Below are positions 13,991 through 44,347 of a DNA stretch of 64,000 nucleotides, piece by piece (position 1 is the stretch's first letter; the number at the start of each line of letters is the position of its first letter). The DNA is from Escherichia coli (GTDB lineage: Bacteria; Pseudomonadota; Gammaproteobacteria; Enterobacterales; Enterobacteriaceae): NCBI RefSeq assembly GCF_044324785.1, contig NZ_CP172127.1, one strand, 5' to 3'. A model generated the notes under the pieces. The model was not told the origin of the DNA. It did not search any database and saw only the letters and a program-made list of their open reading frames with translations. Made by a program: the position numbers and the translations under genes.

Positions 13991-13992
13991 TC

Positions 13993-14034: not shown

Positions 14035-14056
14035 TGGTGCCGGAATCGGAATCGAA
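14035..14056. repeat. degenerate copy of tRNA-Phe 3' end (att scar, island boundary)
   Basis: TGGTGCCGGAATCGGAATCGAA matches the reverse complement of the tRNA-Phe 3' end with one gap and one or two mismatches. Confidence 0.45.
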
Positions 14057-14166
14057 AATTTCTTTTATCATATTGATATTAATATAATTTGTTTGGTTTG
14101 ATTAAAAATGTACCCTCAATTATACCCGCAGTCCCTTTTGATATCGAAAGGGAATCACACTCGGGA

Positions 14167-15009
14167 TCAGGCTGAGAGCACAGAAGGAAAGTACCTGGCT
14201 ATTATATCGTTAATTCTGTCAATCAGTTCCAGCCTTTTGAAAGTGATGTGTGCAGATCCCTTCTTAAAGTATTTAATGATGAACATCTCGTCTTCATAGC
14301 GCTCTTTACCCTGAACGGACTGGATGTGACCATCCAGACGAATAGTGATGTTTTCCCGGTTGTCGGGGATCGGTTTGCCGCTGAACAGATGTAGCATTCT
14401 TTCCAGGTCGACGAGTCGGTCAGTCTGTTGCCCGGTGATAAGATGAAACCCCCACCGGTCCCACCTCACCAGGTTGTTGACGATAATTTTACTGCCAAAT
14501 TTGCAGGGGCAATTGGTTTTGTAATTCCAGCTCAGTCCCCTGAAGACGTTGATCACCCCTCGCTCAAACACCTCATCCTTATTCTGGTGTAGTTGTTCAA
14601 ATGTGATCAGAATGTTCGCTTCACTGATTTCCGGAAAATTATCGTACTCCAGTGACCGGTACCATGTATCACGGGCCTGTGCATCCATTAAGGAAAGCAT
14701 CCCTGAACGTTGCATCAGGTCACGCCAGATTTCGCGATCGAGATTGCGTGTGATGGCTTTCATTGCGGTTTCCGGTTTCTCCATCAGCCAGCAGCCGCAG
14801 CGAAAATCCTGTTTCATGGCCCAGCCCGGGGCGGCTTTACCGCCAATACTTTCTGTCATTGCTGATATTTCAGCCAGTTGCCGGATAAGTGTGTCGATTT
14901 GCAGCAGTGTACTCTTTCGTACAGCCAGAATGTGGCGGATATTGGTTGAGCAGATAACGTCCGTATGCCCGGTGACCACTTCCGGACGGGAGATTGTGAT
15001 GTCTGACAT
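14167..15009 (-). CDS. conserved island hypothetical protein (paralog at 45253-46122)
   Basis: 280-aa ORF with a near-identical paralog; sits beyond the CbtA toxin gene. Confidence 0.6.
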   Translation of the reverse strand: MSDITISRPEVVTGHTDVICSTNIRHILAVRKSTLLQIDTLIRQLAEISAMTESIGGKAAPGWAMKQDFRCGCWLMEKPETAMKAITRNLDREIWRDLMQRSGMLSLMDAQARDTWYRSLEYDNFPEISEANILITFEQLHQNKDEVFERGVINVFRGLSWNYKTNCPCKFGSKIIVNNLVRWDRWGFHLITGQQTDRLVDLERMLHLFSGKPIPDNRENITIRLDGHIQSVQGKERYEDEMFIIKYFKKGSAHITFKRLELIDRINDIIARYFPSVLSA

Positions 15010-15093
15010 TATCGGTTTCCCTTTTGGTTTATAAACGAAAACGCCAGCCCTGTTCAGGCTGACGTCAGTGGAATGAAGTATGGTGAGTGATAT

Positions 15094-15516
15094 TTACCGG
15101 TTCTGGTGCAGAAGCTGCAGGTGACGAAGAGTACGGACATCCTCCCGGGCCTGTTCGATACAGGGCAACAGTGCTGCCGAATCCGTTTTATCCTCATCGT
15201 TGTCAAAGATAATTCCCGATTCGCAGTCGATATTGTCCTGCAGCCACGCAATGAGGATATCCAGCGCTGTTTCAGTGGTTAATGGCATCACGCTCTGTAT
15301 CACTGTATTGTCTTCCGGCAACTGATGAGGGCTGGCAGAAGTCGCCGGTGTTTCGGTAGCGTCACGTTTATCCACCACGCGGAGTGAATAACCGTTTTCA
15401 GCGACCTTGTTAATCAGTTCAATGAGATTAACACCATCGACGTCAACGACAATTCGCCCCATGTTCAGCGCCTGCACGTTAACGCTGTCGGCTTCCAGCG
15501 TCAGGGCCAGTTTCAT
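15094..15516 (-). CDS. hypothetical protein in yeeW-like position downstream of cbtA
   Basis: 140-aa ORF overlapping cbtA stop by 4 bp; N- and C-terminal parts conserved in copy 2 but the middle is replaced. Confidence 0.45.
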   Translation of the reverse strand: MKLALTLEADSVNVQALNMGRIVVDVDGVNLIELINKVAENGYSLRVVDKRDATETPATSASPHQLPEDNTVIQSVMPLTTETALDILIAWLQDNIDCESGIIFDNDEDKTDSAALLPCIEQAREDVRTLRHLQLLHQNR

Positions 15517-15890
15517 TGTTTCGCCTCCGGATGCTTACCCAGAGTAATGTTATTTACTGTTCGGTAATTGTCGCGGGTCATCAGGCCGGTCGCCCTGCGA
15601 GCCCGGAGGATATCGATGCTGTTTATTAACTGAGAGCGGGTACAGGCGCTGAATCCCGGCTGGTCGGTACGCACCAGCGCGTATTTTTCCACGAGAAAGT
15701 TCACCGCATCACACAGTGAAATGCCTGCCTCAATATGCTGCTCAATCACACGTTCATCAGCGAACGGTGTGTCATTCAGTGTGAGGCCGTAATGCTGGTC
15801 CAGCAGTCGGGTGAGCAGTGTATGCCAGATGGTGACGGGAGACGGGCAGCACGATGCCTCCCGTACGTGTGTGTCAGGTAATGTTTTCAT
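15513..15890 (-). CDS. cbtA: CbtA/YkfI/YpjF-family type IV toxin
   Basis: MKTLPDTHV...LTLNDTPFADERVIEQHIEAGISLCDAVNFLVEKYALVRTDQPGF recognised as CbtA family; track ORF trimmed to MKTLP. Confidence 0.8.
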   Translation of the reverse strand: MKTLPDTHVREASCCPSPVTIWHTLLTRLLDQHYGLTLNDTPFADERVIEQHIEAGISLCDAVNFLVEKYALVRTDQPGFSACTRSQLINSIDILRARRATGLMTRDNYRTVNNITLGKHPEAKQ

Positions 15891-15936
15891 CTTAAGTTCT
15901 CTGTAACTGGTAGTGCTAAAGGTGAGATATTCGGGG

Positions 15937-16311
15937 TTATGAGGTGGTTGCGGGTGCCAGTGTCGGATAAACAGCCATATAAACGTAACCACAGGAGCCG
16001 AGGGTGTCGGCTTCACAGGCCAGCCCCTTCGCATACAGTGTCACGGTATGCTGATGGCGGGGATTCAGTTCACCGCTGGTGAGCATGAGCTCCAGTTGTT
16101 TCATCAGCAGCGGAAAGGCCTGGTCCAGGTGGTACGCATCTGCATCGCTGAACAGGCCTCTGATACCGGCGCGGTCGGCAAGGTAATGCAACCGGTTACC
16201 CTCCTGCACCAGACGTGCCCCGAAACAGGGCGTCACGGTGCAGGGCAGCCCCCACCAGGGGCGGTCGTGATTGTCGTCGGGAAGTGTTGTCCCGGGGAGT
16301 GTGTCTGACAC
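15937..16311 (-). CDS. cbeA: CbeA/YafW/YfjZ-family antitoxin
   Basis: 124 aa MSDTLPGTTLPDDNHDRPWWGLPCTVTPCFGARLVQEGNRLHYLADRAGI...; immediately upstream of toxin. Confidence 0.8.
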   Translation of the reverse strand: MSDTLPGTTLPDDNHDRPWWGLPCTVTPCFGARLVQEGNRLHYLADRAGIRGLFSDADAYHLDQAFPLLMKQLELMLTSGELNPRHQHTVTLYAKGLACEADTLGSCGYVYMAVYPTLAPATTS

Positions 16312-16386
16312 GATAAAATCCTCACAGAAAATCGGTTAAGAATGGTCCGGTAGTGGCGATAATTCTGCTCATCAGAATGCCCTGAC

Positions 16387-16608
16387 TCAGTTCAGGGTGA
16401 CACTCATCAGGCGGACATACGGGCCAAAACTGTCCTTACGGCGTTCTGCAAATACAGCCAGCACACCGGGAATATCCTGCACTTCACGACCGGTATACGC
16501 CTCAGCACTGCCGTGCCAGCGGTATTTACCGGTACAGAACGGAAAAAGACGGGATGTCGGATGTTGTTGGTGAATACGCATGGCTTCACCACGGGTGATG
16601 ATTTTCAT
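16387..16608 (-). CDS. YeeT/YkfH/YpjJ-family small protein
   Basis: 73 aa; conserved position between radC-like and antitoxin genes. Confidence 0.65.
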   Translation of the reverse strand: MKIITRGEAMRIHQQHPTSRLFPFCTGKYRWHGSAEAYTGREVQDIPGVLAVFAERRKDSFGPYVRLMSVTLN

Positions 16609-16676
16609 GGTGTGATACCTCTGAAGACAGAAGATAAAAGTGAAAACAGGTGTGATGTGGTGGTGACGGTGACGGG

Positions 16677-17153
16677 TTAAAGCAGACCGTGTTCCGCAAA
16701 GGAGAAAACCTGGCTGCCACCGACTATCAGATGGTCCGGTACCCGGATATCCACCAGGCCCAGTGCCTGTACCAGACGTTCCGTGATAAGGCGGTCTGCC
16801 TTGCTGGGTGTGACTTCACCGGACGGGTGATTGTGTGCCAGCACCACGGCAGCGGCATTGTGGTACAGGGCGCGTTTAATCACTTCCCGGGGATGGACTT
16901 CCGTGCGGTTGATGGTGCCGGTGAAGAGGGTTTCACCGGCAATCAGCTGATTCTGGTTGTTCAGATACAGCACCCGGAATTCTTCACGCTCCAGTCCCGC
17001 CATGTTCAGAATCAGCCATTCCCGTGCCGCATGCGTGGAGGTGAAGGCCACGCCGGGTTCATGAAGATGGCGGTCCAGGGCTTTCAGGGCCCGCTGAATG
17101 AGGCTGCGCTCTCTGGTTGTCATTTCTCCGGGCAGAAAGGAAATCTGTTGCAT
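16677..17153 (-). CDS. RadC-like JAB-domain protein (YeeS/YkfG/YfjY family)
   Basis: 158 aa; JAMM-like HNHPSG motif (VLAHNHPSGEVTPSKAD). Confidence 0.8.
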   Translation of the reverse strand: MQQISFLPGEMTTRERSLIQRALKALDRHLHEPGVAFTSTHAAREWLILNMAGLEREEFRVLYLNNQNQLIAGETLFTGTINRTEVHPREVIKRALYHNAAAVVLAHNHPSGEVTPSKADRLITERLVQALGLVDIRVPDHLIVGGSQVFSFAEHGLL

Positions 17154-17168
17154 TGTTCCGGCCCCCTT

Positions 17169-17654
17169 TCAGTCAATGATGCGCATAATGGCGCTGCATT
17201 CCGGATGCTGCAGGGCGTAATCCCGCAGACGGTAATAATGAACCGTCATGGCATAACACTCCGTACGGCAGGCGTGATGACTGTACGTCATCAGACAGGC
17301 AGCAATGCCGGCGGCTTCCGGGCTCATTTCAGCGCGGTTACCGTTCATGGCATTGAACAGTACCCATGTTTCGTCATCATCATCATCCGGTTCGGGGGCC
17401 ATAAATGCCCCGCCGTTATTCAGTGTGTACAGATTCCAGATACCACCGCAGTAGTCTTCACACAGACGGTCCATCCAGCCGAAGACACGGGGCTCCAGGG
17501 TCACCCACTGTGGAATGAGGCCAAAGTGCTGTGGCCAGAAGCTGATGCACTGTTCATCAGGGACGGGAGTGGCAACCAGTTGAGACTGGTTATTCCCTGA
17601 TGCAGTAGTTACGGAAACAGAAGGTGTGGTGGAATTATGTGAAACGGTTGTCAT
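17169..17654 (-). CDS. antirestriction protein (KlcA/ArdB-like, YfjX/YafX family)
   Basis: Recognised family; start trimmed to MTTVSHN to match copy 2 length (161 aa). Confidence 0.7.
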   Translation of the reverse strand: MTTVSHNSTTPSVSVTTASGNNQSQLVATPVPDEQCISFWPQHFGLIPQWVTLEPRVFGWMDRLCEDYCGGIWNLYTLNNGGAFMAPEPDDDDDETWVLFNAMNGNRAEMSPEAAGIAACLMTYSHHACRTECYAMTVHYYRLRDYALQHPECSAIMRIID

Positions 17655-17744
17655 GATATTATTCCTTATAAAAAGCAAATGAATGAAGAAGGCTCGGGGG
17701 CAGGGACAGACGTGAGTCAGGACGGCGCTTTCAGGTAAACGGTA

Positions 17745-18563
17745 TCAGCGCATGTTCTCCAGCAGCGTTTCCGCCATCACCCATAATGCGCGATTGAGCT
17801 TAATATCGGTGTCGATGCTGTGAATGGCCCGGGTATGGATACGTTTTCCTCTGGCACTGCGGCCGGAAATTCCGCCTTTCAGCATATTCTCCTGGATGGT
17901 CTGATATGCGCTCCACAGGTCCTTACCGTAATCCTCCCTGCGTCGTGGCGTAAGAATGTCAGCGGTGGTGACGGGCTGATGTTCGTCACCATAACGGTAA
18001 GTCAGGGCCGCCTGTGCCAGCGCCTGGCGTGCCGGTGGCGGCAGGACCAGCGACTGCATGGCATCACGCTTCTCCTCTATCCGGTCAAACACGCCCACCA
18101 CCTCGTAAGCCCCTTCGATAACTTTCTCCACTACATTTCCCCGGTGTGGAACACGCACTTCCCCCAGAGACTGGCCACAGACGCACCCGTTCTGGCAGAC
18201 GAACCTGAAGTAACCCGGCAGCATCTGGTAGCTGGAGGTACCGTCATGAGAGTTGAGCAGAATAATTTCAGGGACATGTTCTCCGTTTATCTCTCCGGCC
18301 CGCCGCAGACGCAGCATGTGTTTGGTATACCCCCGGCGGCCCGGGTCACGTACGCGGGTCTGGCAGGCGAAGAACGGCTGAAAGCCTTCCCGCTGCAGAT
18401 TTTCCAGGACGGTAATGGTGGGAATGTACGCATACCGTTCACTGCGGGAGGTGTGCCGGTCTTCCCCAAAAATACTGGGTACATGGCGTATCAGTTCTTC
18501 ATGTGTCAGCGGACGGTCACGGCGTATCTGGTTTACATGACCAAAACGACTTGCTAATCGCAT
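17745..18563 (-). CDS. DUF932-like protein (YfjQ/YafZ family)
   Basis: 272 aa, MRLASRFGHVNQIRRDRPLT...; conserved CP4-type island gene. Confidence 0.65.
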   Translation of the reverse strand: MRLASRFGHVNQIRRDRPLTHEELIRHVPSIFGEDRHTSRSERYAYIPTITVLENLQREGFQPFFACQTRVRDPGRRGYTKHMLRLRRAGEINGEHVPEIILLNSHDGTSSYQMLPGYFRFVCQNGCVCGQSLGEVRVPHRGNVVEKVIEGAYEVVGVFDRIEEKRDAMQSLVLPPPARQALAQAALTYRYGDEHQPVTTADILTPRRREDYGKDLWSAYQTIQENMLKGGISGRSARGKRIHTRAIHSIDTDIKLNRALWVMAETLLENMR

Positions 18564-18653
18564 GATTTGCTCCTTATGAATGAGTTAGCGGTATAAATGA
18601 AAAAGCCGCGTCTTCTGGAGAAGACGCGGCCTGATGGATCAAGTGAATGACGT

Positions 18654-18887
18654 TTATTGCCTGAGAATTCCCTCACTGGCGAGATACGGATTTAGCTGTT
18701 TTCCGGCATCAGGTTCAAAATTCCAGCACCGCCAGCGTAGCTGCCCTTCAGCATTGCGAATAACCAACCGGGAATATGTTCCCTGGTCATCTTCAGTAAA
18801 CACATTGCGGTAAGCTGTTTTGACGGCAACAGCCTGTTCGCGTGAGAAAGGGCCTTCGGGCAATAAACGTGATGTACAACCCGGCAT
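18654..18887 (-). CDS. DUF905-like small protein (YkfF family)
   Basis: ORF trimmed to internal Met to match 77-aa paralog at 50098-50331. Confidence 0.55.
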
Positions 18888-18957
18888 ATCTGTTGCTCCC
18901 TGAAAGTAAAAAGCCCCGGTCATGATGACCGGGGCCTGAAGGAGAGTGACCTGATTA

Positions 18958-21804
18958 TCAGAAAGTCACATTCAGCGTGGCCTGACCGTTATAACCTTCA
19001 GCGCTGCTGCCGCTGACACTGTGGGCATAACCGGCCTGAACGCCCAGGGTGATATTTTCCCGGACACGGGCTTCCAGTCCGGCCTGCAGGTCCAGTGACG
19101 TGCCATTCCGGGACGGTGAGAACGTCATGTTACTGCCGGCGGCGGCTGTACCCATGCTCATGTCACCCCGGGAGCTGAAAGTGCGGATAACAGAAGGCTG
19201 TACCCACCAGTTCACCGGCAGTTCACTCACACGGTGTTTTGTACTGTCGCGCAGAGTGTCACGGGATGAGGTGCCTTCGCCAAAGGTCATATCGTTGTGG
19301 CTGCCCAGACGGAAGCCGGCACGCACATGTTGTGTACTGCCATGCCCGAACTTCACATAACCGGCGTTATCCTGGCCGTCATCCAGGGAGAGCCCCTGCC
19401 AGGTGTACTGCAGTTGTGGCTCCAGCATCAGGTTGTCAGTGATACTGAAGGGCAGACCGGTTTCCAGTGAGCCCAGCCAGCCCCAGCCCCGGGCGCGGAA
19501 GTCGTTATTGTCCGATGACGCTTTCATGCTGTGGCGGGTTCCCTGTGCCACAATGTCAGCCCACAGGCCGGAGGACGTGTGTGTCAGATTCAGGTATCCG
19601 CCCAGGCTGCCGGCATCATCCCGGACCGTGCCGGCGCGGGAACCGTCATCATCCTTAACATCAACGGAAGAATGGCCTGCAGCACCATATACCCCTGTCG
19701 TCAGAGACATACCGGCAACCTCTGTTCTGAGCAGGTCACCCTCCAGATGGACGAAGCCATAGCTGCCGCTGCTTTCCGGCGTGGCTCCACGGGCAATACC
19801 GCCGTTGTTATCGTGACCGAGATGACCGCCCTGAATGCTGAGACGGACGCTGTTATTTTCACCGCTTACACCGGTCTGATGGCTGCGGGAGCCTGCCAGA
19901 ATCCGGTCATAGTCCATTGCCTGTGTCAGCATGGAGGCATACAGGGGGACTTCAGCACGATAAGCATTTTCACTGCGCAGGTACCAGTCTTCATCGCTGT
20001 CACGGTTCAGGGTGTAGTTAAAGGCTCCGGCCTGAAGCGGGCGACTCAGGGCAAACGCACCTTCTTCTGTGGTGGCACCATTCTGTGCATCCACAACCCG
20101 GATACCCTGTCCGGAGGTTGCCACCCCGAGGTTACTGTTTCCGACATTTGTAAACGCAAGCCAGGTTTTGCCGGTTGCCTGACCACCATTAATCACCAGC
20201 TGGTCAGAGGTATTGCTGCCATCAAGGCGAACACGCATATTGATGGTGCCACCCTGACCGGTGAGGTTACTGGTTGTCAGTTTATGGAACGTTACCGGGG
20301 CGTTGCCTTTTGCAACAGCACGGCTCAGTACGGCATCCGGTGTTGTCTGATTGTCAAAGTAAATCTCCCCTGCGTTAACAATATCGCCGGTACTGACCAC
20401 ATCACCATTCAGTACCATGCTGGCGCCTTTACTGAGCTGTGTTCTGCCACTCAGACTTCCCCCGGCAGCCAGCATCAGTGTTCCACGATGTCCGACAGTG
20501 GTGTTGCTGGCCTGTCCCCCGGCATTAACCGTAAAGCTGCCGCCATTTTCCAGCAGCAGGTCGCTGGCCTGACCGGATATGCCATCAATACTGAACTTAC
20601 CGCTGGCATTGGTCCCCTCAACAGTGGCACCACTGTCTGCTATCAGGGCACCACCGGATGTCATGGTGACATCTGTTGCCTTACCACCGGCAGACACTGC
20701 CAGGGTACCGCCGTCATCCACCAGTGTTTTCTGCGCTGAATGGCCCTCCAGTACATCCAGGCGACCGCCGGACTCCAGAACAACGCCGTCAGCCTTACCG
20801 TTTTCCACTGTGAAATTGCCCAGACGGTTGCTGCCGGTGACGGTTGCCGCCGTACTGGTGACCAGTGCGCCGCCCTGCGTCAGGGTGACATTCGTGGCTG
20901 TACCACCGGCGTTCACCTGCAGTTTGCCTTTCTGGTTAACGGTGGTGAAATCCGCCAGACCACCTTCCTTGATAATCTGCCAGCCGTCACTGTTAACAAC
21001 AGTGCCAGACGCCGTACCGCCGTTGTGCACATACTGGTACCCCCCATTCAGCGTGGTATCCAGTGCGTGACCATGTACAGTCTGGTCGCCGCCGGCATAA
21101 ACCACAGTGGTATTTGCCGTTCCTTCAGCAGCCACAATCTGACGACCATTTTTATTGATGGTGGTGCGTACGGCATCTCCGTAGACGGTCTGCCCGGTAT
21201 CACCATTTTCCGCATCCGGTCCCCCTTCCGCGCCGGTATTCACAACCGTGTCGGTTGCCACTGCGCCGGATTTGACGGCCTGCCAGCCCTTCTCATTAAT
21301 GACGGTACCCGTTGCAATCCCGCCTTCATGTACCCACTGCTCACCGCCGTTCAGCGTGGTGTTCACTGCCTGCCCCTGAAGGCTCTGTCCGCCTCCGGCA
21401 CTGATAACCGTGTCTGAAACGCTTCCTCCGGCATTCACTCTCTGAAGACCACCACCGGTGACAGTAGTGTTGTTGGCGATACCGCCATTTTGTATCCATT
21501 GCCCGCCGGTATTGACCTCGTTATCCGGCCCATACTCCAGCCCGGTACTGATGGTCATTCCGTTGGTCGTACCGAAGACAATCTGGTTGTCATGATTTTC
21601 CAGTGCTCCGCCGCTCACGGTTTCTCCCGCCTGTACAACCGTGTCAGCAGCCAGTGCCGGGACTGATGTGACAGCAGCAAGAGACAGCGCAACCGCCACA
21701 CCGGCGCGTTTTCCCCGTGAGCGGGCCAGTTCGGAGGCCACCACCAGGGTGCCCGTAATGTGATTCCATACCAGCCTGTAGCTGGTGTTCAGATGTCGTT
21801 TCAT
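18958..21804 (-). CDS. flu: antigen 43 (Ag43) self-associating autotransporter adhesin
   Basis: [31 protein letters not shown] signal region, repetitive Gly/Thr/Asn-rich passenger, C-terminal beta-barrel ending ...TLNVTF; start trimmed to MKRHL (948 aa). Confidence 0.85.
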
Positions 21805-22017
21805 CAGCTTTTCCTTACAGAGGGTGAATAAAAAAGCCGGTACCCACAAATGTGGATACCGGCAGGTACAAAACAGCATGGTCAGATAAAGTGTTTTTTC
21901 CCGGACATAAATGCTTCCCCTCTCTCATCCGCCAGAGAAGTATCAGTCCGTTGTGTGCAATTCCGTTCTGCATGATGAAGAGATTCAGCTGCCTTTTCGC
22001 AGGCCATTAACCACTAT

Positions 22018-22060
22018 AAATGATCGATTGTGACGATCGATACCTGTTTTATCGATCGTT
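22018..22060 (-). promoter_or_regulatory. agn43 phase-variation switch: three GATC Dam sites (OxyR operator region)
   Basis: GATC at about 22022, 22035, 22054 in TGATCGATTGTGACGATCGATACCTGTTTTATCGATCG, about 220 bp upstream of the flu start. Confidence 0.6.
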
Positions 22061-22176
22061 TTATTCTATTAATAACAAGGCAGCCACGCAAGAGAAACAG
22101 GAGGAGTATGAGGGGTTTGTGTCATGTTTTCAGTTGGTTAACGCAATGTAATCAGGCATTTCCTCTGGCAGAGTGT

Positions 22177-23112
22177 TCAGAAGAAAATCCAGTTCCATAC
22201 CGCGCGGGCAACAGAGACCACGGTGTCACGGACGGCACGCAGAACCGTACGAGCCACAGAGGCAACACAGACGCTCTCCGCCGTGTCAAATATCCGGTCC
22301 ACCGCACCGGTAAACTGTTCACGGGCCTGCCCCCGGACAGATTCCGTGCACAGCTCGTCCTGCAGGCGGGTCATCAGGGGACTGGCGGCATGGTCGGGAA
22401 GTGCTGTCATGAGCGCACTGACCAGCGTATCCAGTTCCCAGCCGGTGCGGGCCGATACGGCCACAACCGGATGTACGGGCCGGAACAGCCGGAATACCGC
22501 ATCTGTTTTCTCACGAATGTTCTGTTCCTGTGCGGGAGAAGGCTGAATACCTGCCATATCCCATTCATGGCAGGGCTCCGTTTTGTCGGCCTGCGTCACC
22601 ACAAACAGCACCTGCTGATGTCCCCGGTGCAGGATGTGTCGCCAGAAATAGTCATCCACAGACAGGGCCCGGTCATCGGCTTTAATCAGCCACAGTACCA
22701 GGTCAAGTTCAGGCAGAATGTCACGGTACAGGGCTTCATACTCTGCATCCCTGTCCCGGCTCTCGCCCACCCCGGGCAGGTCAGTGATAACCATGCTGTG
22801 ACCATGGCCACTCAGACGGAAGCGCTGCACTTCCCGGGTGCCGGCGTGAACATCACTGACCGGGGTGACCTCCCCCTGAAACAGTGCATTACAGAGTGAG
22901 GATTTACCGGCCCCGCTTTTTCCCATAATGCCAATCACGGGTTCGTGGCTGGTGAGTTTGCGCAGATGTTCCAGGATGTGACGGGAAAGTGAGTAAGGCA
23001 GGGAGGAGAGCGGTTTTTCAATTGCCTCAATGGCATCAGACGGATTCATACATGTATTCCCGGTGAAAAAAGACAAAACCCCGCGCACCGGAAAGGTGGC
23101 GGGGGGATTCAC
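22177..23112 (-). CDS. YeeP/YfjP/YkfA-family GTPase
   Basis: P-loop GIMGKSGAGKSSL; true start may be the internal Met at about 23049. Confidence 0.75.
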   Translation of the reverse strand: MNPPATFPVRGVLSFFTGNTCMNPSDAIEAIEKPLSSLPYSLSRHILEHLRKLTSHEPVIGIMGKSGAGKSSLCNALFQGEVTPVSDVHAGTREVQRFRLSGHGHSMVITDLPGVGESRDRDAEYEALYRDILPELDLVLWLIKADDRALSVDDYFWRHILHRGHQQVLFVVTQADKTEPCHEWDMAGIQPSPAQEQNIREKTDAVFRLFRPVHPVVAVSARTGWELDTLVSALMTALPDHAASPLMTRLQDELCTESVRGQAREQFTGAVDRIFDTAESVCVASVARTVLRAVRDTVVSVARAVWNWIFF

Positions 23113-23278
23113 GGAGATAATATCTGCCTGAAATTATTTGGAATGCAGGTATATGTGGCTGATTTGTATCAGCTAATGAGTACAGGTCTGAATCTAATCT
23201 GACAGTCCGCTCTGTGCCAGGAGCGGACATTGTTTTCCAACTATTACCTAAGCCTGCGAACCATCTCATCTTCACCCC

Positions 23279-29920: not shown

Positions 29921-29998
29921 GGGGGATAACAGGCAGCAGAGTGCCGCCGGCAGGCCGGAGATTGCGTCTGCTGTGGGCGAAGGGCCAGTGGTTAAAAA

Positions 29999-30205
29999 TT
30001 ACGGACGGGACTGTGCAATACGCGCCTGCAGCCAGGCTTCCACTTCACTTTTCAGCCAGCGGGAGCTGCGGCCGAGTTTGATGGGAGCCGGAAAGGCCCC
30101 ATCCTTGATGAGCTTGTAAAACCACTTATCGGTCAGGCCGGTCAGCTGAGTGATAAACGTCATATCGACCATCTGGTCATCCATCAGCGAAACTGGGGTG
30201 GTCAT
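29999..30205 (-). CDS. alpA: AlpA-family phage/island transcriptional regulator
   Basis: 68 aa; FITQLTGLTDKWFYKLIKDGAFPAPIKLGRSSRWLKSEVEAWL is the AlpA/MerR-like excisionase-type HTH. Confidence 0.8.
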   Translation of the reverse strand: MTTPVSLMDDQMVDMTFITQLTGLTDKWFYKLIKDGAFPAPIKLGRSSRWLKSEVEAWLQARIAQSRP

Positions 30206-35045: not shown

Positions 35046-35612
35046 ATGTATACAGAATCAAATGTTAAGCTTTCCTGTAACGCCCTCTGGCAAAAGTGTG
35101 TCCTTGCAACTCTGTATCGGGCTGCAGCCACACATCCTGAAATTAAATTATTACAATTTAAATTAATACCAGGGCAGGGTATTAATAAGGCCATTCCCTC
35201 TCTGATGGCTGATTTTACTGGTGAACTGCATAGACTCATTTCTGAATATTTGCAGTGTAAGCGACGTAAAGAGCAATCTGTTGAGCCCACCCCTTTATAT
35301 TATCTCTGGAGTAGGGAAGCTGTGGCTAACGATACCACTCCTTATCTTATGGTGCTGCTACTTAATAACGATGTCTGGTGTAAGAGTCGTGAGGTGGTGG
35401 TTCTCAGAAATCTGATTGAGCAGGCGTGGGGAAAAGTATTGGGTGAAGATAACTCCATTACACATCTGGTTGTGTATCCTGAAGTGCTGTCGTTGGTATT
35501 TGATGCAGCTAACACATACAACGCTGAGCCTGCTGTACTGGAACAGACGGCCCGGGCTTACATTGAATCACATGGTACCATTGAACGTCATCTTGGGTGT
35601 AGTGACTTTTAA
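35046..35612 (+). CDS. YagK-like (inovirus Gp2-type) protein with degenerate HUH motif
   Basis: 188 aa; YLWSRE...PYLMVLLLNNDVWC aligns with the HYHVILLLNKDTWC motif of the 57669 paralog but lacks both His. Confidence 0.6.
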   Translation: MYTESNVKLSCNALWQKCVLATLYRAAATHPEIKLLQFKLIPGQGINKAIPSLMADFTGELHRLISEYLQCKRRKEQSVEPTPLYYLWSREAVANDTTPYLMVLLLNNDVWCKSREVVVLRNLIEQAWGKVLGEDNSITHLVVYPEVLSLVFDAANTYNAEPAVLEQTARAYIESHGTIERHLGCSDF

Positions 35613-35957
35613 CGTCAGGTGATGCATAAGGGCCTTTCGCTGAGAGGCCCTGTTTACACAATTAAATAAATCGAGCCCGACCAACAATTTTGATGTTAAC
35701 AGCAGGATTATTGAGGGGCAATCAATGTGTTCTTCGGTAGCGATTACGGTAGTGAACGGACCTGCTGTCTGAATGGCATCGATCCGCAAGCGTATCGGCG
35801 CCATATTCTGAGCGTACTACTGAAATGGCTAATGGCAGTAAAGAGAGACTTTACGTATATTTGCATAAAGCAGGATTTTACGACTAGTCAACATTCTTTA
35901 TAATTCTTCAGGTTCAGAGTATCTGACATATAGGGTTATGTATTGGGGAGACATTTA

Positions 35958-36659
35958 ATGTTTGGCCATCTGTTACGATACTTTAGTTTCTGTAAAAAAG
36001 ATTTATTAGTATTTCATCCTGAATCTGATTACTCAGATAATTTACATAAAGCCTTCTCTTTTACAAAAAGGCTAGGATTTAATGAAGAATGGAATGGGGT
36101 CACAAAAAACAAAGAATATGATTATCAGGATGTATTCAGTCATGTCTGTCTGCAGTCTGGTGTGACAGACTTTTCCGCTTCAGCAGGACAATGCTTAAAG
36201 TGGAGTCATTATTTTCAGCCATATTTTGAGAATATCCTTGAATGTCGGGTATGGGTTACCGTTGGACAACTCTGGAAACAGGAACGATTTATTTACAATC
36301 CGTCAGTTGCGGATTTTCAGCGCTGGTCTGAAAAAGGGATTCAGCCTGAAGATTTTAGACATCACTCGGGGTTTAACTTTCATGCGTGGTTGACGACGGA
36401 AAATGGTGTGATTGTGGATGTTTCCTTTATGAGTACGTTATCGCGGCGATTACCTGAACACCTGAGTGAAGTCAGTGGAAGTGTGATTATTGGCACGCCA
36501 GAGACGGTTCTTCCTGAGTATAAATATGTTCCCATGATTGTCGGTCAGAGGATTGTTGAGAAAATAGAAAAACGCTCTTTCATTGGTTTTCTGGCGCACG
36601 ACGATATTGATTTATATACAGTACCTGCAATCTTGGTTCCGGTATGGAAAGAATGTTAA
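35958..36659 (+). CDS. hypothetical orphan cargo protein
   Basis: Track ORF starts at TTG 35943; ATG at 35958 preceded by GGGGAG; 233 aa; low GC; no recognisable motif. Confidence 0.5.
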   Translation: MFGHLLRYFSFCKKDLLVFHPESDYSDNLHKAFSFTKRLGFNEEWNGVTKNKEYDYQDVFSHVCLQSGVTDFSASAGQCLKWSHYFQPYFENILECRVWVTVGQLWKQERFIYNPSVADFQRWSEKGIQPEDFRHHSGFNFHAWLTTENGVIVDVSFMSTLSRRLPEHLSEVSGSVIIGTPETVLPEYKYVPMIVGQRIVEKIEKRSFIGFLAHDDIDLYTVPAILVPVWKEC

Positions 36660-36978
36660 AGCACGGAATAACACTATGCACTTACCGCTTTCCGGAACTC
36701 AGCTTGTTACCTGAGCGGTCAACAGAGCAGTCTTTCAGTGTCTGCACTTGGTTGCCACTAAACCGGAGTCATTTATCAGAAGTATATGTTCATGGAAGGA
36801 TATTGTCAGCGCCAGTGATATAAGACGGTAATGAGGATAGCCACCCCGCATGGGTTTCCTCAACACTGGTCACTGTGACAAGCGCACCATGATCGTCTTT
36901 GTATCGCTGATTGACTTTCGATAATAGAACATCTTCTGACATAAATTTTAGTACGGTAACAATTAACTAAATTTTCAT

Positions 36979-37245
36979 GTGGTAGCACTGAATCAGGAGA
37001 CTGCGTTTCCTGATGTGTGCTTCTGCAGCCGTTACCGGATACAGACTTCGATACCAGTTACTTCGACATCCGCCATGTGTCCTGGGACCCGCTATAACGA
37101 AGTTGGAGGTAATCAGTACAGCGTTCCCGAAATGCTGTGTGGTCAGCCAGTCTCGATACGAATATCGCTGAACGATGAGTTGCGGATCTACAGTAATGAG
37201 AAACTGGTGGCCTCACATCGCCTCTGCTCAGTGTCGTCTGGCTAG
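36979..37245 (+). pseudogene. IS21-family IstA C-terminal fragment (remnant)
   Basis: ...NQYSVPEMLCGQPVSIRISLNDELRIYSNEKLVASHRL resembles an IstA C-terminus; no N-terminal part. Confidence 0.35.
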
Positions 37246-37389
37246 CAGATAGTACCGGAACCTCACGCCCCGCTCTGGCAGCAGATCAGTCAGGTGGAAC
37301 ATCGACCACTGAGTGCCTATGAGGAGCTGTTGTGATGCATGTGTCAACGACGGATGAAAGTGGCTCTTCCGCAACCTGGGTGGAGATTT

Positions 37390-38816
37390 TCATGCCAGTG
37401 GACTCATTACCCTCTGCCTGAGTAGTTCAAATCCTGCTCGACCATACATCTGGCGTTTCAGCATCTTCAGGCGATTTACATGACCTTCGACAACACCATT
37501 ACTCCAGTGACTACTGATTGCCTCACATATAGCTGCAGCATCAGCTTCCATCCCCGCCGCCACGCGCCGAAATTCTGCTGAACCGCTTTCGTGGACTCGA
37601 GTGAACCAACTGCTTAGCTGTGATTTATTTTGGGTTTTCAGAATACGGTAGAACTCGAGTGCCAGTTGCTGCGCTATTTTCAGCTCAGGTTCTTTTTCAC
37701 ACATCAGACTAATAAATCGGGAAGCATAATTTTCTTCATCCCTGGTTATTCTCCAGGGCATCAACCAGCGGCTTACCCGGGACACTGAAGGAAGTCTGAC
37801 GGCAGTAGTAACCGGTGGGTTCCAGCCTTTACGCCATTTGGCAACCGCATCCCTGACGATGGTTTCACTGCCTGTAAATCCCCGGGCCACCATTTCCCGC
37901 CATATCCGGCTGGCGTTATAATTACCACTTTCTCGTTGCTCTTTTAACCACTCCCTCCATGGGTCCAGAAGCCCTCGCTTTGGCGGTCGGGTTGACATTT
38001 CAGGGAATGTTCCTGAACGCACCCAGCGACTGACTGTCACACGCGACAGGCCTGTAATACGGGATATTTCCCTGAAACTACATCCCTTGTTATGCAGGGC
38101 CATAACCTCTGTCCAACGCTGATGCCGTTTTTTGCGGGTTTGTTGTTTTAGGCGTTCCGGACGACGGAGCGATGCTGCAGGCACAGATGGTTCTGGATCA
38201 GGTGATTTCTTTGGTGACAACTCACTGGCAACAAGACGTATCAGAGGTATATGTCTATACATCATTCGTTCAGGCGCATCGCCAATATTTTTTAGCAGAT
38301 GCCATCGATCGGCCACCTGTCTGGCCTGAGGTGCACCTTCACGTGCTGCTGTCGCATAGACTCCACTGCGATCACGCGAGACAATCTGTATTTCCGGATA
38401 TTTTCTGAACCAGGTCGCCAGCGTACGCTGATCACGGCCGGGAAGCAGGACGAGGGGACGGTGAGTATCAAGATTGACGATTAACGTACCGTAACGGTGG
38501 CCCCGATGCCACGCCCACTCATCAATACCGACATGAGGCGAGCCTGACTGTTTCGTCTCCGGGGTATTGATAACCCTGCGAAGGAGAGTATCAGCACTGC
38601 AACGGAGACCCACTGCCGTTGCTGCCCGTTTCCCGGCCTCACCTCCGGCGATTAATCCCAGTTGACGTTGTAAATTTTGTAACGCCTGTGAAGACTGTTG
38701 GTGTGAACCGGCGAAGGGAGCAAGCGACTCGGCAAAAATTTTACGTGAACAAGCCGGGTTACGGCAGTACCAGTGGCGGACAGAAAATACAAGCCATAGC
38801 GTATGTCCTGAGCAGG
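37390..38816 (-). CDS. ISL3-family-like transposase, 5' end truncated by IS2
   Basis: GIDEWAWHRGHRYGTLIVNLD DDE-domain start and C-terminal SNGVVEGHVNRLKMLKRQMYG motif typical of ISL3; track ORF start lies inside the IS2 terminus. Confidence 0.5.
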
Positions 38817-38827
38817 TGGATTTGCCC

Positions 38828-39733
38828 CTATATTTCCAGACACCTGTTATCACTTAACCCATTACTGGCCTGCTGCCGCAGATATTCCCGTGGCGAGCGA
38901 TAACCCAGTGCACTATGCGGATGCCATTCGTTATAATGCTCGAACGCCTCTGCAAGGTTCTTTGCTGCCGTTAACCCGTCTGGTTTAGGCATGATACTGA
39001 TGTAGTCACGCTTTATCGTTTTCACGAAGCTCTCTGCTATGCCGTTACTCTCCGGACTCCGCACCGCCGTGTTCTTCGGTTCAAGCCCCAACATCCGGGC
39101 AAACTGCCGTGTTTCATTAGCCCGGTAGCATGAACCATTATCCGTCAGCCACTCTACTGGAGACGCCGGAAGCTCGTTGCCGAAGCGGCGTTCCACCGCT
39201 CCTGGCATGACGTCCTGTACTGTTTCACTGTCGAAGCCGCCCGTAGTGACTGCCCAGTGCAGTGCCTCACGGTCACAGCAGTCCAGCGCGAACGTGACTC
39301 GCAGTTTTTCTCCGTTATCACAGCGGAACTCGAACCCGTCAGAGCACCATCGTTGATTGCTTTCTTTCACGGCCACTTTGCCAGTATGTGCCCGTTTCGA
39401 TGGCGGTACAGCGGTTTTTCGCTCAAGCAACAGCGCATTCTGGCGCATGATCCGGTAAACACGTTTGGCATTGATCGCAGGCATACCATCAAGTTCGGCC
39501 TGTCTGCGAAGCAGCGCCCATACCCGACGATAACCATACGTGGGCAGCTCTCCGATAACATGGTGTATACGGAGAAGCACATCCGTATCATCTGAGTGAC
39601 GGCTGCGGCGACCATCTTTCCAGTCATCGGTTCGTCTGAGAATTACGTGCAACTGCGCACGCGACACCCGGAGACAACGGCTGACTAAGCTTACTCCCCA
39701 TCCCCGGGCAATAAGGGCGCGTGCGCTATCCAC
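38828..39733 (-). CDS. insD: IS2 transposase OrfB (InsD)
   Basis: 301 aa recognised as IS2 InsD (DDE integrase core). Confidence 0.9.
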
Positions 39734-40056
39734 TTTTTTGCACGCCCGTATTCAACGGCTTCTTTAAGGAGTTCATTTTCCATCGTTTTTTTGCCGAGCA
39801 GGCGCTGGAGTTCTTTAATCTGCTTCATGGCAGCAGCAAGTTCAGAGGCAGGAACGACCTGCTCTCCTGCGGCCACAGCAGTAAGACTTCCCTCCTGGTA
39901 TTGCTTGCGCCAGAGAAATAACTGGCTGGCTGCCACACCGTGTTGCCGGGCAACAAGGGAGACCGTCATTCCCGGTTCAAAACTCTGCTGAACAATAGCG
40001 ATCTTTTCCTGTGTAGTACGCCGTCTGCGTTTCTCCGGTCCTAAGACATCAATCAT
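39691..40056 (-). CDS. insC: IS2 OrfA (InsC)
   Basis: [56 protein letters not shown]; track ORF trimmed to MIDVLG. Confidence 0.9.
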
Positions 40057-40613
40057 CTGCTCTCCAATGACTAGTCTAAAAACTAGTATTAAGACTATCA
40101 CTTATTTAAGTGATATTGGTTGTCTGGAGATTCATGGGGCCAGTCTAATGTGTATCCGGGATGGATGTTTACCAGAACCTTCTCTGTTCCAGTGTGTGGA
40201 GTTTTACAGAAGAGGCGACTGTATGCAACTCTTGCCCCGTAACTGTCTTTATTCGTTTCTCCACACTCTCCGGACATTGTAAATTCCAGATGTGTGGCAG
40301 TGTGTTTTTCGTAAATCGTACACAATGCATTTTTACACGGAGTTCAGCCAGTCGTATCACTGAGAGTTTTTTTCTGATTTGTACCACTCATGCAGCAGTG
40401 ATAAGGAGATATTTTCTCTGTCGGGCCAGCAGGGGCGGTGCCACCTGTTTAGTTTTCTTATGTTTGGTAAAAGAGAGGCTAAAATATATACAACAGGCGT
40501 ATGTAATGATTCATATTGTTAATCATTAACCAGTAAGAATTAATGTAGTGGATCGGTAATTCAGGACACCTCGAAATCCTGTTAATGTTAAAACAGTGAA
40601 AATGGGGTGATGC

Positions 40614-40931
40614 ATGAGCAAAACTCGTCGGACTAAACGCACCTTTTCCCCGGAGTTCAGGCTCGAAGCTATCGAGCAAGTAGTTAAATACCAGCGCGAT
40701 GTCAGAGAAGTCGCGCTGGCACTTGAGCTCAATCCTGACCATTTGCGTAAATGGATACGGTTGTATAAGCTGGAACTTCAGGGTATTGAGCCCGCTGGTA
40801 ATGCCATACCCCTGAACAGCGAGAAATTCAGCAGCTTAAAAGCGCAGATAAAGCGCCTTGAGATGGAAAAAGAAATACTAAAGCAGGCTGCCGTGCTGAT
40901 GAGCGAAATCCCCGGCAAGCTGTCGCGCTAA
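40614..40931 (+). CDS. IS3-family transposase OrfA; downstream orfB truncated
   Basis: 105 aa with HTH and leucine-zipper-like C-terminus; orfB-like frame continues to about 41060 and is cut. Confidence 0.65.
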   Translation: MSKTRRTKRTFSPEFRLEAIEQVVKYQRDVREVALALELNPDHLRKWIRLYKLELQGIEPAGNAIPLNSEKFSSLKAQIKRLEMEKEILKQAAVLMSEIPGKLSR

Positions 40932-41099
40932 TCACACTGCTGAAAGCAAAGCGGCCAGTGCGGATTATTTGTCATTTATTCGGTGTTCACCGTAGCGTTT
41001 ATTACGCGCAGGTGAAGCGTCCTGTTAATGTATCAGCGCCAATGATATAAGACAGTAATTAGGATTCGGACGATTTCCTGGACTGCTTTATTATGCCAG

Positions 41100-42650
41100 C
41101 CCGCATTGTTGGCGGTACATTTCAGGGATGACTGCACCCAGCGAAAATTTTATACGCCGCTCGTTATACCATCTGATGTAAGCATCCACATGCCGCATGA
41201 ATTTTTCAGGCGTGATACCCAATCATTTACGCCCATAATATATTTCAGTTTTCAGTCTGCCGAAAAAGCCTTCGCATGCAGCATTATCAGGCGAGCATCC
41301 TTTACGGGACATTGAGCGAATAAGGCCTGCTGTATTCACTCTTTCCAGCCAGGCCAGCGATAATGCCCACCTCTGTCACTGTGTATCACCGGTCGTTCGC
41401 CAGCATTTAACGTTTCGACAGCGTTATCCAGCATAGTGTTGACCAGTTCAGCATCGGGGCGTGTACTGAGAGACCAGCTCACAACTTTTCTGTCGAAGCA
41501 GTCCACCACCGGTGATAGCCAGACTTTTCCTGCAGGAAGCTGGAACTCCGTGATATCTGTCAGCCATTTCTGATTAGGTTGCTCCGCCTTAAAATCTCTG
41601 GCGATAAGGTTATCCGGAGAAGGTCCGATTTCTCCGCAATATGAGCTGTAGCGGCGATGACGGTTACGGCTGACGACAAGCTGTTCCTCCACCATAAGTC
41701 TGCGTACAACCTTTTCTGATAGCCGATCCCCCTCATGCCTGAGCATCGCATGCAGGCGACGATAGCCATAACACTGGTAATTACTGTTAAATATATCTGT
41801 CAGCATCGTACGTATCGTGGCGTATTTATCACTGGCTTTCAGTGCAGCCCGGTGATAAAAATAACTGCTACGGGCAAGGCCCAGAACATGCAGTAATTCT
41901 GTCAGGGGATATGTTTATCTCAGGGCATCAGTAATCTTTGTTTTTTCTCTGTTGTTCAGGTGACTGATGCTGATGCCCGGGTCTTTTTTTATTATTTCCT
42001 CCGCTTTTTTCAGAATATCCAGTTCCATCTGCCGGCGGCGTATTTCCTGATTCAGTCGGGCGACTTCCTCCCGCAACGCATCGCGTTCTGCCTCCAGGGA
42101 AGGGGCGTTATGTTTACGCATAGTCTGGTAAGCACTGTTGCCGATAATTTCATCTTTCCATTTATACAATACCGCGCGACTGACACCAATACGCCTGGCG
42201 ATTTCACTGGCTGATCCTTGTCGTGTACAGAGTACCATGACAGCCTGACGTTTGACTTCTGGTTCAAAGGACGCAACCGGATTGGTCTTACTGGTAAATA
42301 CACGTCGTCTGTCGGGGGAACGTTCATTAACCCAGCGAGCGAGCATATCGGTACAGGGATAACCCAGAGTCCTGCTGGTAAACGCCAGGCAGCAGCCGTG
42401 GTTAAGATAATGTTCAACGGCAACCTGTTTTTGCTCATCGGAGTAACGGTGCTTATGACGAATGGATTCTTTTGATCCGCCACCTGCTTCCCATGAACGG
42501 ATCCAACGCCGCAGATTTCTTTTCGAAGGGTAGCCCAGTTCGCGTACGACGGGGCCAGCTTCTTACCATATTTGAAATAAAGCTCAATGGTGCGAATTTT
42601 TTGTTCTTCAGTAAACATGTTTCATCTCCTGAGAGTCCAGGAAATCGTCC
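41100..42650 (-). mobile_element. degraded IS3-family insertion sequence (orfA and orfB frameshifted)
   Basis: ORFs 42052-42618, 41915-42346 and 41336-41806 encode pieces of IS3-type OrfA (HTH) and OrfB (DDE core) in different frames. Confidence 0.6.
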
Positions 42651-42868
42651 GCATCCCCTAACGGTCAAAAATCGTGGCGTTGATACAGGGGAAATCCGTA
42701 GTTTTTGATGCCAGCCATAACGTGTTTGACTATAAAGTATTACGAAAGGACTTTAATGAGCCCCTGGAATAATTCATTAAAGTAATTTACTTCGCTATCC
42801 TTTTCCCAGTTACTCACAAAGAAAAATATTCATAAAATAATTCCCGGGCTGGCAGCCCGGGATGATTA

Positions 42869-44131
42869 CTATTTTAATGGATTGTTAATCTTTGCATATT
42901 CAAACGGGCTGATACATTGTTCTCTGTTCGCACCCAGAAAATCTGCCCACCACTGTAGCATCAGTCGACGTTCTTCCAGATGTTCTGCTTTATGGATATA
43001 TGCAGCACGTACACCATTACGCTCCTGATGGCTCATCTGACGTTCCACAGCATCGCGGGACCACAAACCTGATTCAATCAATGCACTGCACGCCATCGCC
43101 CGGAATCCATGACCACAGACTTCCTGGGTTGTGTCATATCCCATCACCCTCAGGGCTTTATTTACAGTATTTTCACTGATCGGTTTACGCGGGTCATGTG
43201 CTCCCGTAAAGATCAGACCATTTTCACCAGCCCATGTCTGTAGTTCTGTCAGTATGGCTACAGCCTGTTTGCTGAGTGGCACAAGATGTGGTGTTCGCAT
43301 CTTGGAGCCCCGGTGTGAGTATTTTACGCCTGGCAGAGGTTCGCGTTCGGCTGGAATAGTCCACATGGCATTGTCAATATCAATTTCAGACCAGCGGGAA
43401 TATCTGAGTTCACTGGAACGAATAAAAACCAGTAAATTCAGCATAACTGCCAGTCGGGTGACAGGCTGACCTTTATAACCGTCAATACGCGACAGAAGTT
43501 CAGGCAGGCGTGAAAGATCCAGAGCAGGGCGATGCTGGCGTTTTACCGTGGTCAATGCACCAGCCATATCCAGAGCCGGGTTATATCTGATGATGCCAGA
43601 CTGTACGGCATAACGCATTACAGCAGATATTCTTTGCTGCAGACGACTGGCGATTTCATAAATTTGTTTTGCTTCTGCAGCACGAACAGGGATAAGCAGG
43701 TCCGGGGTATTGAGTGTTGTGATATCCCGGTTGCCGATAAAGGGGAAAACGTGTGTCTCGAGGCTTTTGATTACTTTATCGCTGTGTGATTGTGCCCATT
43801 GTTTATTACTGGCATGCCAGCGTCGTGCAATATGTTCAAAAGAGAGTTGTAAATCAGGGACTACTTTTTTAGCTCTTTTTTGTTCGCAAGGGTCAATCCC
43901 CTCTGAAATCAGTTTTCGGGCCTCATCCCGTTTTGTACGAGCTTCGGAGAGAGAAACTTCTGGATATACACCAAGTGCCAGAGTCTTCTCCTTACCCAGA
44001 ATACGATAACGGAGACGCCAGTAACGGGAACCATTAGGATGAACCAGCAGGAACATGCCAGCCCCGTCAGTGAGTTTATAAGCCTTGTCAGTGTGCTTTG
44101 CAGCCCGGATTTTTGCGTCAGTCAGTGCCAT
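42869..44131 (-). CDS. P4-type (IntA-like) tyrosine integrase
   Basis: 420 aa; MALTDAKIRAAKHTDKAYKLTDGAGMFLLVHPNGSRYWRLRYR N-terminus typical of P4-family integrases; next to tRNA-Phe 3'-end repeat. Confidence 0.85.
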   Translation of the reverse strand: MALTDAKIRAAKHTDKAYKLTDGAGMFLLVHPNGSRYWRLRYRILGKEKTLALGVYPEVSLSEARTKRDEARKLISEGIDPCEQKRAKKVVPDLQLSFEHIARRWHASNKQWAQSHSDKVIKSLETHVFPFIGNRDITTLNTPDLLIPVRAAEAKQIYEIASRLQQRISAVMRYAVQSGIIRYNPALDMAGALTTVKRQHRPALDLSRLPELLSRIDGYKGQPVTRLAVMLNLLVFIRSSELRYSRWSEIDIDNAMWTIPAEREPLPGVKYSHRGSKMRTPHLVPLSKQAVAILTELQTWAGENGLIFTGAHDPRKPISENTVNKALRVMGYDTTQEVCGHGFRAMACSALIESGLWSRDAVERQMSHQERNGVRAAYIHKAEHLEERRLMLQWWADFLGANREQCISPFEYAKINNPLK

Positions 44132-44287
44132 AGTTCAGCCTTCTGAATGCGTTAAAGAGGGTACAAATTCTGTCGAACTGGGGTATACCCGCAATTATAC
44201 CCACACAATGGGGTTGATGTGGGGGGAATCTGGTTGAGTTCGGTAGAATTGATTTGGAGGCAGAACGCTTAAATTGTGGCGTTCTGA

Positions 44288-44317
44288 AACGAAAAACGGA
44301 CCTCCGTGGAGGTCCGT
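44288..44317 (-). terminator. rho-independent terminator-like hairpin
   Basis: ACGGACCTCC-GT-GGAGGTCCGT perfect inverted repeat followed by T-run on the minus strand. Confidence 0.4.
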
Positions 44318-44328
44318 TGATATGAATT

Positions 44329-44347
44329 TGGTGCCCGGACTCGGAAT
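44329..44347. repeat. 19-bp direct repeat of tRNA-Phe 3' end (att site)
   Basis: TGGTGCCCGGACTCGGAAT is the reverse complement of the tRNA-Phe 3' terminus; sequence diverges from the tRNA beyond 19 nt. Confidence 0.6.

Follow-up and report, generated by a model that had tools for sequence, protein, structure and literature searches.

Two P4-integrase-type islands in probable tandem at the pheV tRNA gene, beside a group 2 capsule locus of Escherichia coli

The 64,000-nucleotide stretch of Escherichia coli contig NZ_CP172127.1 (assembly GCF_044324785.1) analyzed here, which we call the window, very probably represents the tRNA-Phe hotspot pheV carrying two site-specifically integrated islands in tandem, island A having probably arrived first and island B afterwards. 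Island A, a CP4-like element of the P4-integrase type delimited by annotation and by colinearity with strains TUM9803 and NRZ14408, spans 30,272 bp (14057-44328, minus strand) between two copies of the tRNA-Phe 3′ end, while island B (minus strand) begins at 44348 and runs past the right end of the window. The anatomy of the attachment (att) sites, the identity of the left flank with that of pheV, and a presence/absence polymorphism among genomes that breaks at the tRNA core are all directly observed.

According to the mechanism that we propose, the P4-type tyrosine integrase of each island would recombine the island attP with the last 19 to 23 nt of tRNA-Phe, these particular integrases being the putative catalysts. 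Each integration would swap the tRNA 3′ end (for island A, the terminator too) for an island-borne copy, and displace the former 3′ end, with the native terminator, to the opposite side of the island. The first integration, that of island A, would have left the native pheV end and its terminator at 13988-14056, next to the capsule (kps) genes. Island B would then have entered the regenerated tRNA and left a 19-nt copy (44329-44347) between the integrase of A and its own distal end; further to the right would come the functional pheV and then yqgA and speC.

Two copies of the tRNA-Phe 3′ end

An indel-tolerant fuzzy search of the window for the tRNA-Phe 3′ end at up to four edits returned two sites alone, 14035-14056 and 44329-44347, in direct orientation, and no tRNA gene was found within the window. 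Shuffled controls (n = 100) gave 0.00 matches at ≤2 edits; with 4 edits allowed, the figure was 0.01.

The right-hand site, 44329-44347 (TGGTGCCCGGACTCGGAAT), matches the last 19 nt of tRNA-Phe, reverse-complemented, without a mismatch, and this exact 19-mer has a single match in the window, against a chance expectation of 0.02. A terminator scan placed a hairpin just 3′ of it on the minus strand (44318-44295), and the integrase gene of island A starts 197 nt to its left, at the tRNA-proximal end of the island, and reads away from the tRNA. A first-pass annotation of this DNA, made from the letters alone, had described a perfect 19-bp copy of the tRNA end beside a P4-type integrase with a hairpin between them, and all three elements were recovered here. 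We annotate 44329-44347 (minus strand, by exact match) as an internal att scar with two roles, attL on the tRNA side of island A and attR at the distal end of island B. It separates the integrase-side arm of A from the distal arm of B. Immediately to the left of 44329 stand the terminator and the integrase-upstream region, whose sequence is unlike the pheV flank and follows intact pheV wherever island A adjoins the tRNA, as in NRZ14408. We assign both the terminator and this upstream region to island A, the hairpin (44295-44318, minus strand) being an island-borne terminator placed after the tRNA 3′ end that A regenerated.

The left-hand site, 14035-14056 (TGGTGCCGGAATCGGAATCGAA), corresponds to the last 23 nt of tRNA-Phe minus one base and with one substitution, a match of 21/23. 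In the sense of the tRNA it reads TTCGATTCCGATTCCGG-CACCA, with one G deleted and one G-to-T change. An ungapped scan with 25 nt of the tRNA and three mismatches skips this copy because of its deletion, and the indel-tolerant search recovers it. The adjoining 59 nt (13976-14034) are identical, hairpin included, to the flank left of the intact pheV in MS 57-2, a strain in which the site is empty, and the homology of the window to that strain stops inside the tRNA-derived core. Likewise, the sequence downstream of pheV in K-12, which in the sense of the window strand is AGATCCAAAAGCAAAAACCCGCCTTGTGGGCGGGTTCTTAAGAATTAG followed by the tRNA, is nearly the same as window 13988-14034. A terminator-like hairpin detected by the scan just 3′ of the copy (14026-14000, minus strand) is the native pheV terminator, and 13988-14034 (minus strand) is the native chromosomal 3′ flank of pheV that contains it, as judged from the K-12 and MS 57-2 matches. 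The whole of 13988-14056 is this terminator together with the displaced native 3′ end of pheV, and 14035-14056 (minus strand) is the distal att scar, or attR, of island A, an assignment based on the fuzzy search, the shuffles, and the flank identity.

Given this flank, identical to that of MS 57-2 and K-12-like from 13988, the 14035 copy is not a chance match. A fortuitous likeness to tRNA-Phe, which would leave 44329 as the sole true island boundary, might be argued from the degeneracy of the copy (one substitution and one deletion) and from its absence in the plain three-mismatch scan, but it is refuted to near certainty by the lack of comparable matches in the 100 shuffles, by the 59 nt of MS 57-2 pheV flank beside it, by the match to the K-12 sequence downstream of pheV with its terminator, and by the point within the tRNA core at which homology to the empty site ends. 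Chance similarity, which the first-pass annotation had named as what would undo its proposal, is thus not what lies at 14035. Its description of that copy was right as to reality, single gap, hairpin, and kps side; the match that it put at about 22 of 24 nt becomes 21 of 23. Because the sequence downstream of pheU in K-12 is different from the left flank of the window, pheU was rejected as the locus in favor of pheV.

Comparator genomes and the intact pheV

Genome counts given below refer to 5,426 complete E. coli genomes. In the empty site of MS 57-2, kpsF and an IS110 remnant are followed by intact pheV, yqgA, and speC, with no island. NRZ14408 has island A alone, with the same kps type and the same integrase, and then intact pheV-yqgA-speC; apart from two insertion sequence (IS) insertions, its island A is 99.7 to 99.98% identical to that of the window. 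TUM9803 is 99.89% identical over window 1-44350 and continues with a 50-nt tRNA-Phe fragment and an integrative and conjugative element (ICE) of the SPI-7 type. Past position 44350, three bases beyond the 19-nt copy, neither NRZ14408 nor TUM9803 is any longer identical to the window. The integrase (WP_001596139.1) is common to TUM9803, NRZ14408, and VTB96959v and is the same protein as that of island A. The polymorphism at pheV thus has its breakpoints at the tRNA repeats in MS 57-2, NRZ14408, and TUM9803. Comparison with strains lacking one or both islands had been recommended in the first-pass annotation, and the outcome (MS 57-2 empty, NRZ14408 with A only, breaks at the tRNA core) agrees with the island A of roughly 30 kb that it had drawn between the two scars.

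Components of the array are also found singly at pheV, island A in NRZ14408 and a B-like island in strain C7. In the latter, the B-like island stands alone at the kps flank with the scar TGGTGCCCGGAATCGGAAT, and its distal arm is homologous to the window from 44348 onward; this island is related to B, not identical. The same junction between A and B occurs in 213 of the genomes, VTB96959v being 100% identical over 1 kb, while the commonest arrangement, an A-type integrase beside intact pheV-yqgA, was found in 3,063.

One annotation in these comparators deserves comment. Positions 44338-44415 of TUM9803 (NZ_CP135671.1) are given in RefSeq as a 78-nt “tRNA-Ser,” and are actually the end of the SPI-7-type ICE fused to the 50-nt tRNA-Phe 3′ fragment. 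ARAGORN called no tRNA in this interval, and the “tRNA-Ser” is probably a mis-called att remnant.

Two relatives, KMi012 and VTB96959v, extend the picture to the right. In both, pheV lies on the minus strand beside yqgA-speC, 61.4 kb and 73.1 kb, respectively, to the right of the scar between A and B. By this spacing, the intact pheV of our strain would be outside the window, ca. 42 to 53 kb past its end. The tRNA gene that had been predicted on this side is in the predicted direction in the two relatives, and the limit of about 40 kb set for it was too tight for a refuting condition. Between scar and pheV, both strains carry a cdiA/cdiB contact-dependent inhibition locus, a type I restriction-modification system, and a raffinose-like sugar cluster, and VTB96959v alone of the two has microcin H47 genes there. 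The same stretch contains a partial integrase remnant (KMi012 stretch L027, 2487-2671; VTB96959v stretch L043, 29102-29286) and, next to pheV with the raffinose-like sugar cluster, a different integrase of 394 aa (15568-16752 and 10385-11569 of the same stretches, respectively). No further att scar was found in KMi012 or VTB96959v between the B-like island and the tRNA-proximal one, and the segment on the pheV side might be a third element of the accretion, its boundary since lost.

Within the window, island B shows its distal repeat only, and its integrase lies beyond. The closest matches of 42000-64000 and 55000-64000 in a megablast search of the complete genomes had 94 to 97% identity over 83 to 92% of the query. 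Exact-identity look-ups with four protein products of island B yielded mosaic relatives, an identical contig of 1.8 kb, or no match. Among its relatives island B is a mosaic, with identities of 88 to 99% in patches.

Order of arrival and alternative histories

Since near-identical kps and island A sequences are found both in a strain with A only and in one with A plus an ICE, arrival of A before B is the more parsimonious order, although not one provable from structure. The first-pass annotation had spoken of a later island B at the same tRNA; B indeed starts at the tRNA copy, at 44348, while “later” stands as the parsimonious, unprovable part of that statement.

Several points weigh against the tandem integration of A and then B as the history of this locus. 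The final anatomy is identical whichever island arrived first, and an insertion of A into the distal scar of B, or a precise loss of B, gives the same anatomy as well. Island A is a decayed mosaic, with IS remnants, an inverted alpA, and partial genes, and may not derive from one single event; the yee module beside the 14035 scar is common to many islands at ca. 90%, and homologous recombination may have swapped the interior of A since it first integrated. A composite nature is possible for island B as well, given the integrase remnant and the different integrase found with no further scar between them. Finally, the intact pheV and the integrase of B are deduced from relatives rather than seen in the window's own continuation.

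Among the alternatives, a possible but less favored one is that homologous recombination, acting through core or kps DNA on the flanks, imported the kps-A-B block, whole or in part, and that the integrations took place in other strains. Recombination tracts spanning the pheV genomic island (GI-pheV) and the capsule locus have been described in sequence type 1193 (ST1193) (PMC11488385), and the presence of the A and B junction in 213 genomes from varied hosts, together with the patchy identities of island B, fits such a transfer. This history does not conflict, however, with an origin by tandem integration, which it merely relocates, and no direct sign of a recombination tract was seen here.

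We consider similarly tentative the proposal that the 14035 scar is old and has become fixed as a relic in many GI-pheV types, island A being a patchwork refilled through its yee and flu modules, so that the two scars would not belong to one event. Of 41 reference GI-pheV, 16 have an imperfect attR of 23 bp that lacks the same G, and they belong to different phylogroups and integrase alleles (PMC11537424). The scar with the adjoining DUF4942 end recurs in hundreds of genomes, some of which have the kps flank and others not. Islands A and B share 4.7 kb at 89 to 92% that could serve as an exchange substrate, and A is full of IS remnants. On the other hand, three strains share A in colinear form at 99.7% identity or more, bar IS insertions, with no recent exchange visible, and a motif repeated in both arms of A is consistent with ends that belong together. 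This 20-nt motif, GTATACCCGCAATTATACCC, has two matches in the window, one per arm of island A, with 0.01 expected by chance. The motif search located GTATACCCGCAATTATACCC itself in the integrase-side arm (44183-44202, plus strand) and a copy with three mismatches, ATGTACCCTCAATTATACCC, in the distal arm (14108-14127, plus strand), and the pair are candidate arm-type binding sites of the integrase.

A reverse order of arrival is unlikely. A B-type island would have integrated first at pheV, leaving its scar at the kps flank, and A would then have entered that distal scar. Strain C7 does have a B-like island directly at the kps flank, its scar TGGTGCCCGGAATCGGAAT shares the C-to-A change of the 14035 scar, and the resulting anatomy would be indistinguishable. 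Nevertheless, near-identical kps and A sequences stand beside intact pheV in NRZ14408 and with a different tRNA-proximal element in TUM9803, and these comparators are most simply explained by an ancestral arrangement with A next to pheV into which different elements landed.

Under the favored order, A and then B, the two islands would differ in mobility. A single att mismatch lowers island deletion by orders of magnitude, according to evidence cited by Nhu et al. (PMC11537424), and the two att copies of A differ at two positions, so that island A is probably locked, or largely immobile. With an intact integrase, island B could perhaps still excise. The yee backbone duplicated between the two islands (14195-18867 and 45305-50311, in direct orientation and ca. 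31 kb apart) is a predicted substrate for homologous deletion or for the formation of hybrid islands. If the internal 19-nt copy were still a working att, the array would be a nested mobile unit in which B excises alone between that copy and the tRNA, A stays locked, and the yee modules act as RecA substrates that fuse or swap island halves. We regard this as speculative and rather doubtful; if true, it would provide a concrete mechanism for the “modular” evolution of GI-pheV, and some single GI-pheV would really be arrays.

Known elements, gene content, and the capsule locus

Much of this is already known: pheV as a hotspot, the P4-type integrase, GI-pheV, both attR types, and tandem accretion, the window being an instance present in hundreds of genomes. 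The pathogenicity islands (PAIs) at pheV, often counting the kps capsule as a part, are listed for many pathotypes, PAI V536 and PAI I CFT073 among them (PMC7545054). In GI-pheV (Nhu et al. 2024, PLoS Genet, PMC11537424), conservation is limited to one gene, that of the P4-type integrase, and the content is built of modules, flu and yee among them. Our locus shares with it the tRNA gene, the P4-type integrase, the flu and yee modules, and the position by the kps locus. Two attR types dominate there, a 23-bp imperfect one, TTCGATTCCGAGTCCGG-CACCA, and a 19-bp one with a TTTC flank (PMC11537424), and the scars of the window represent both. The 14035 scar has the same G deletion as the 23-bp type and adds a G-to-T change outside the published consensus that is otherwise typical of the 19-bp type, while the 44329 scar, with its flank TTTCATTCCGAGTCCGGGCACCA, is the 19-bp type without the T substitution. 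The published scheme takes one modular island to reach from pheV to one attR and places the integrase right beside pheV (PMC11537424). In the window, unlike in that scheme, the A-type integrase is internal, with a second island and a perfect 19-nt att between it and pheV. Internal scars or tandem arrays are not discussed in that paper, from which the terms “tandem,” “composite,” and “second integrase” are absent.

Site-specific tandem accretion is an established process, exemplified by the model of ICESt1 and the cis-mobilizable elements (CIMEs) (Pavlovic et al. 2004 and Bellanger et al. 2011, reviewed in PMC5704250). As in that model, two elements with the same target abut at an internal att, one of them is decayed, and strains with a single element exist. 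The model concerns streptococcal ICEs as well as IMEs (integrative and mobilizable elements), for which excision and cis-mobilization were shown experimentally, whereas the array described here is known from sequence, and no conjugation module was seen in the window.

In gene content, the islands resemble CP4-57 and CP4-44 of K-12, with toxin-antitoxin genes of the CbtA/CbeA type, RadC, antirestriction, DUF932, DUF905, GTPase, YfjI, YfjJ/YagK, AlpA, and Ag43. Those elements have a P4-type integrase at a tRNA or tmRNA gene, their loci being ssrA and, for CP4-44, a non-tRNA site. They differ from the present pair in their loci and cargo, and are single elements rather than a tandem pair. CP4-44 is also named in the description of GI-pheV (PMC11537424).

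K-12 has a further relevant remnant. Window 44209-44328 is closely similar to the K-12 sequence downstream of pheU (K-12 stretch L038, 930-1050), beside the yjdQ pseudogene, the resemblance covering ca. 140 nt left of the 44329 scar. Only the yjdQ pseudogene is annotated there, with no full-length integrase, and the window's own locus is pheV by its left flank. One island type would thus use both of the identical tRNA-Phe genes, and the similarity suggests that K-12 keeps a stump of the island A type at pheU.

The tandem array opens no new biological question, and its main value is for annotation, as it sets, for this strain, the exact borders of the two islands and of the kps locus. What is catalogued as one GI-pheV can, moreover, comprise at least two elements that integrated independently, with an att inside. 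This matters for predicting which cargo (Ag43, the toxin-antitoxin modules, and the further cargo of B) is lost or transferred as a unit.

Both islands carry a yee module, a GTPase gene, YagK/YfjJ genes, and an AlpA-type gene, and can be classed as related CP4-like elements of the P4-integrase type. From its distal end, island A contains a yee module (14167-18900) with DUF4942, DUF957, DUF5983, CbtA/CbeA, DUF987, RadC, antirestriction, DUF932, and DUF905 genes, followed by the gene of the Ag43/Cah autotransporter adhesin (flu, 18958-21879, minus strand), assigned by NCBIfam NF033177 with 1984 bits against a cutoff of 1200. The remaining content includes a GTPase, a cargo of LysR, hydrolase, and major facilitator superfamily (MFS) genes, YagK/YfjJ genes, and many IS remnants at 37390-42618. 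The full-length integrase, a P4-type tyrosine recombinase of 420 aa (42869-44131, minus strand), was identified by the Pfam domains Arm-DNA-bind_3, Phage_int_M, and Phage_integrase and by a PHROG integrase match. Beside its 3′ end there is a 90-nt remnant of a phosphoethanolamine transferase gene (ca. 42685-42774), a gene that is intact next to related integrases in other strains. The AlpA-family gene of island A (29999-30205, minus strand), assigned by matches to the PHROG category “excisionase and transcriptional regulator,” is located mid-island rather than near the integrase. It is inverted with respect to the copy of island B, with a 75% match to 63426-63581, and its orientation and position indicate an internal rearrangement of island A.

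The part of island B in the window (44348-64000), described from open reading frames (ORFs), family matches, Pfam, and the annotation of relatives, begins with a RelE/ParE-ParD module (44595-45181) and a second yee module (45253-50311). Further along are a GTPase gene (52045-52929), two genes without an assigned family (53035-54863), YagK/YfjJ (57669-58400), YfjI/DUF3987 (58727-60331), a YfjJ-like gene (61921-62487), and the AlpA-family excisionase or regulator gene (63371-63607, plus strand, by PHROG matches). WYL and helix-turn-helix (HTH) genes are also among its content.

To the left of island A, the group 2 capsule cluster (1-12891) provides the context outside both islands. It was delimited from ORFs and the RefSeq annotation of the 99.9%-identical stretch of TUM9803, and comprises the end of a kpsT-like ABC ATPase gene (1-60), the low-GC region 2 (247-4885, plus strand), and region 1 with kpsS/C/U/D/E/F (4935-12891, minus strand). 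The end of kpsF is ca. 1.1 kb left of the 14035 copy, and between them lies a remnant of an IS110-family transposase (13654-13836, minus strand, from the annotation of TUM9803 and MS 57-2; window coordinates are locus coordinates minus 7). As this remnant is present in the empty-site strain too, it is part of the kps end and not of island A. The kps cluster replaces ca. 100 bp of the K-12 yghD-pheV spacer, with its border at 13987/13988, and ends 47 nt downstream of pheV, just beyond the terminator. The possibility that kps is itself the oldest tRNA-integrated island was considered and rejected, with no trace of tRNA-end integration here; no third tRNA-Phe scar was found at ≤4 edits on the yghD side of kps (TUM9803 stretch L042, 6460-7515).

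The two genes of region 2, of 1169 aa and about 336 aa, lie in DNA of 31% GC, the value over 1-4000 being 0.31. At the 3′ end of the second gene (ca. 4841), the window has one copy fewer of the 7-bp tandem repeat AAACTAA than TUM9803 and NRZ14408, which moves the stop of this gene from the equivalent of 4864 to 4885.

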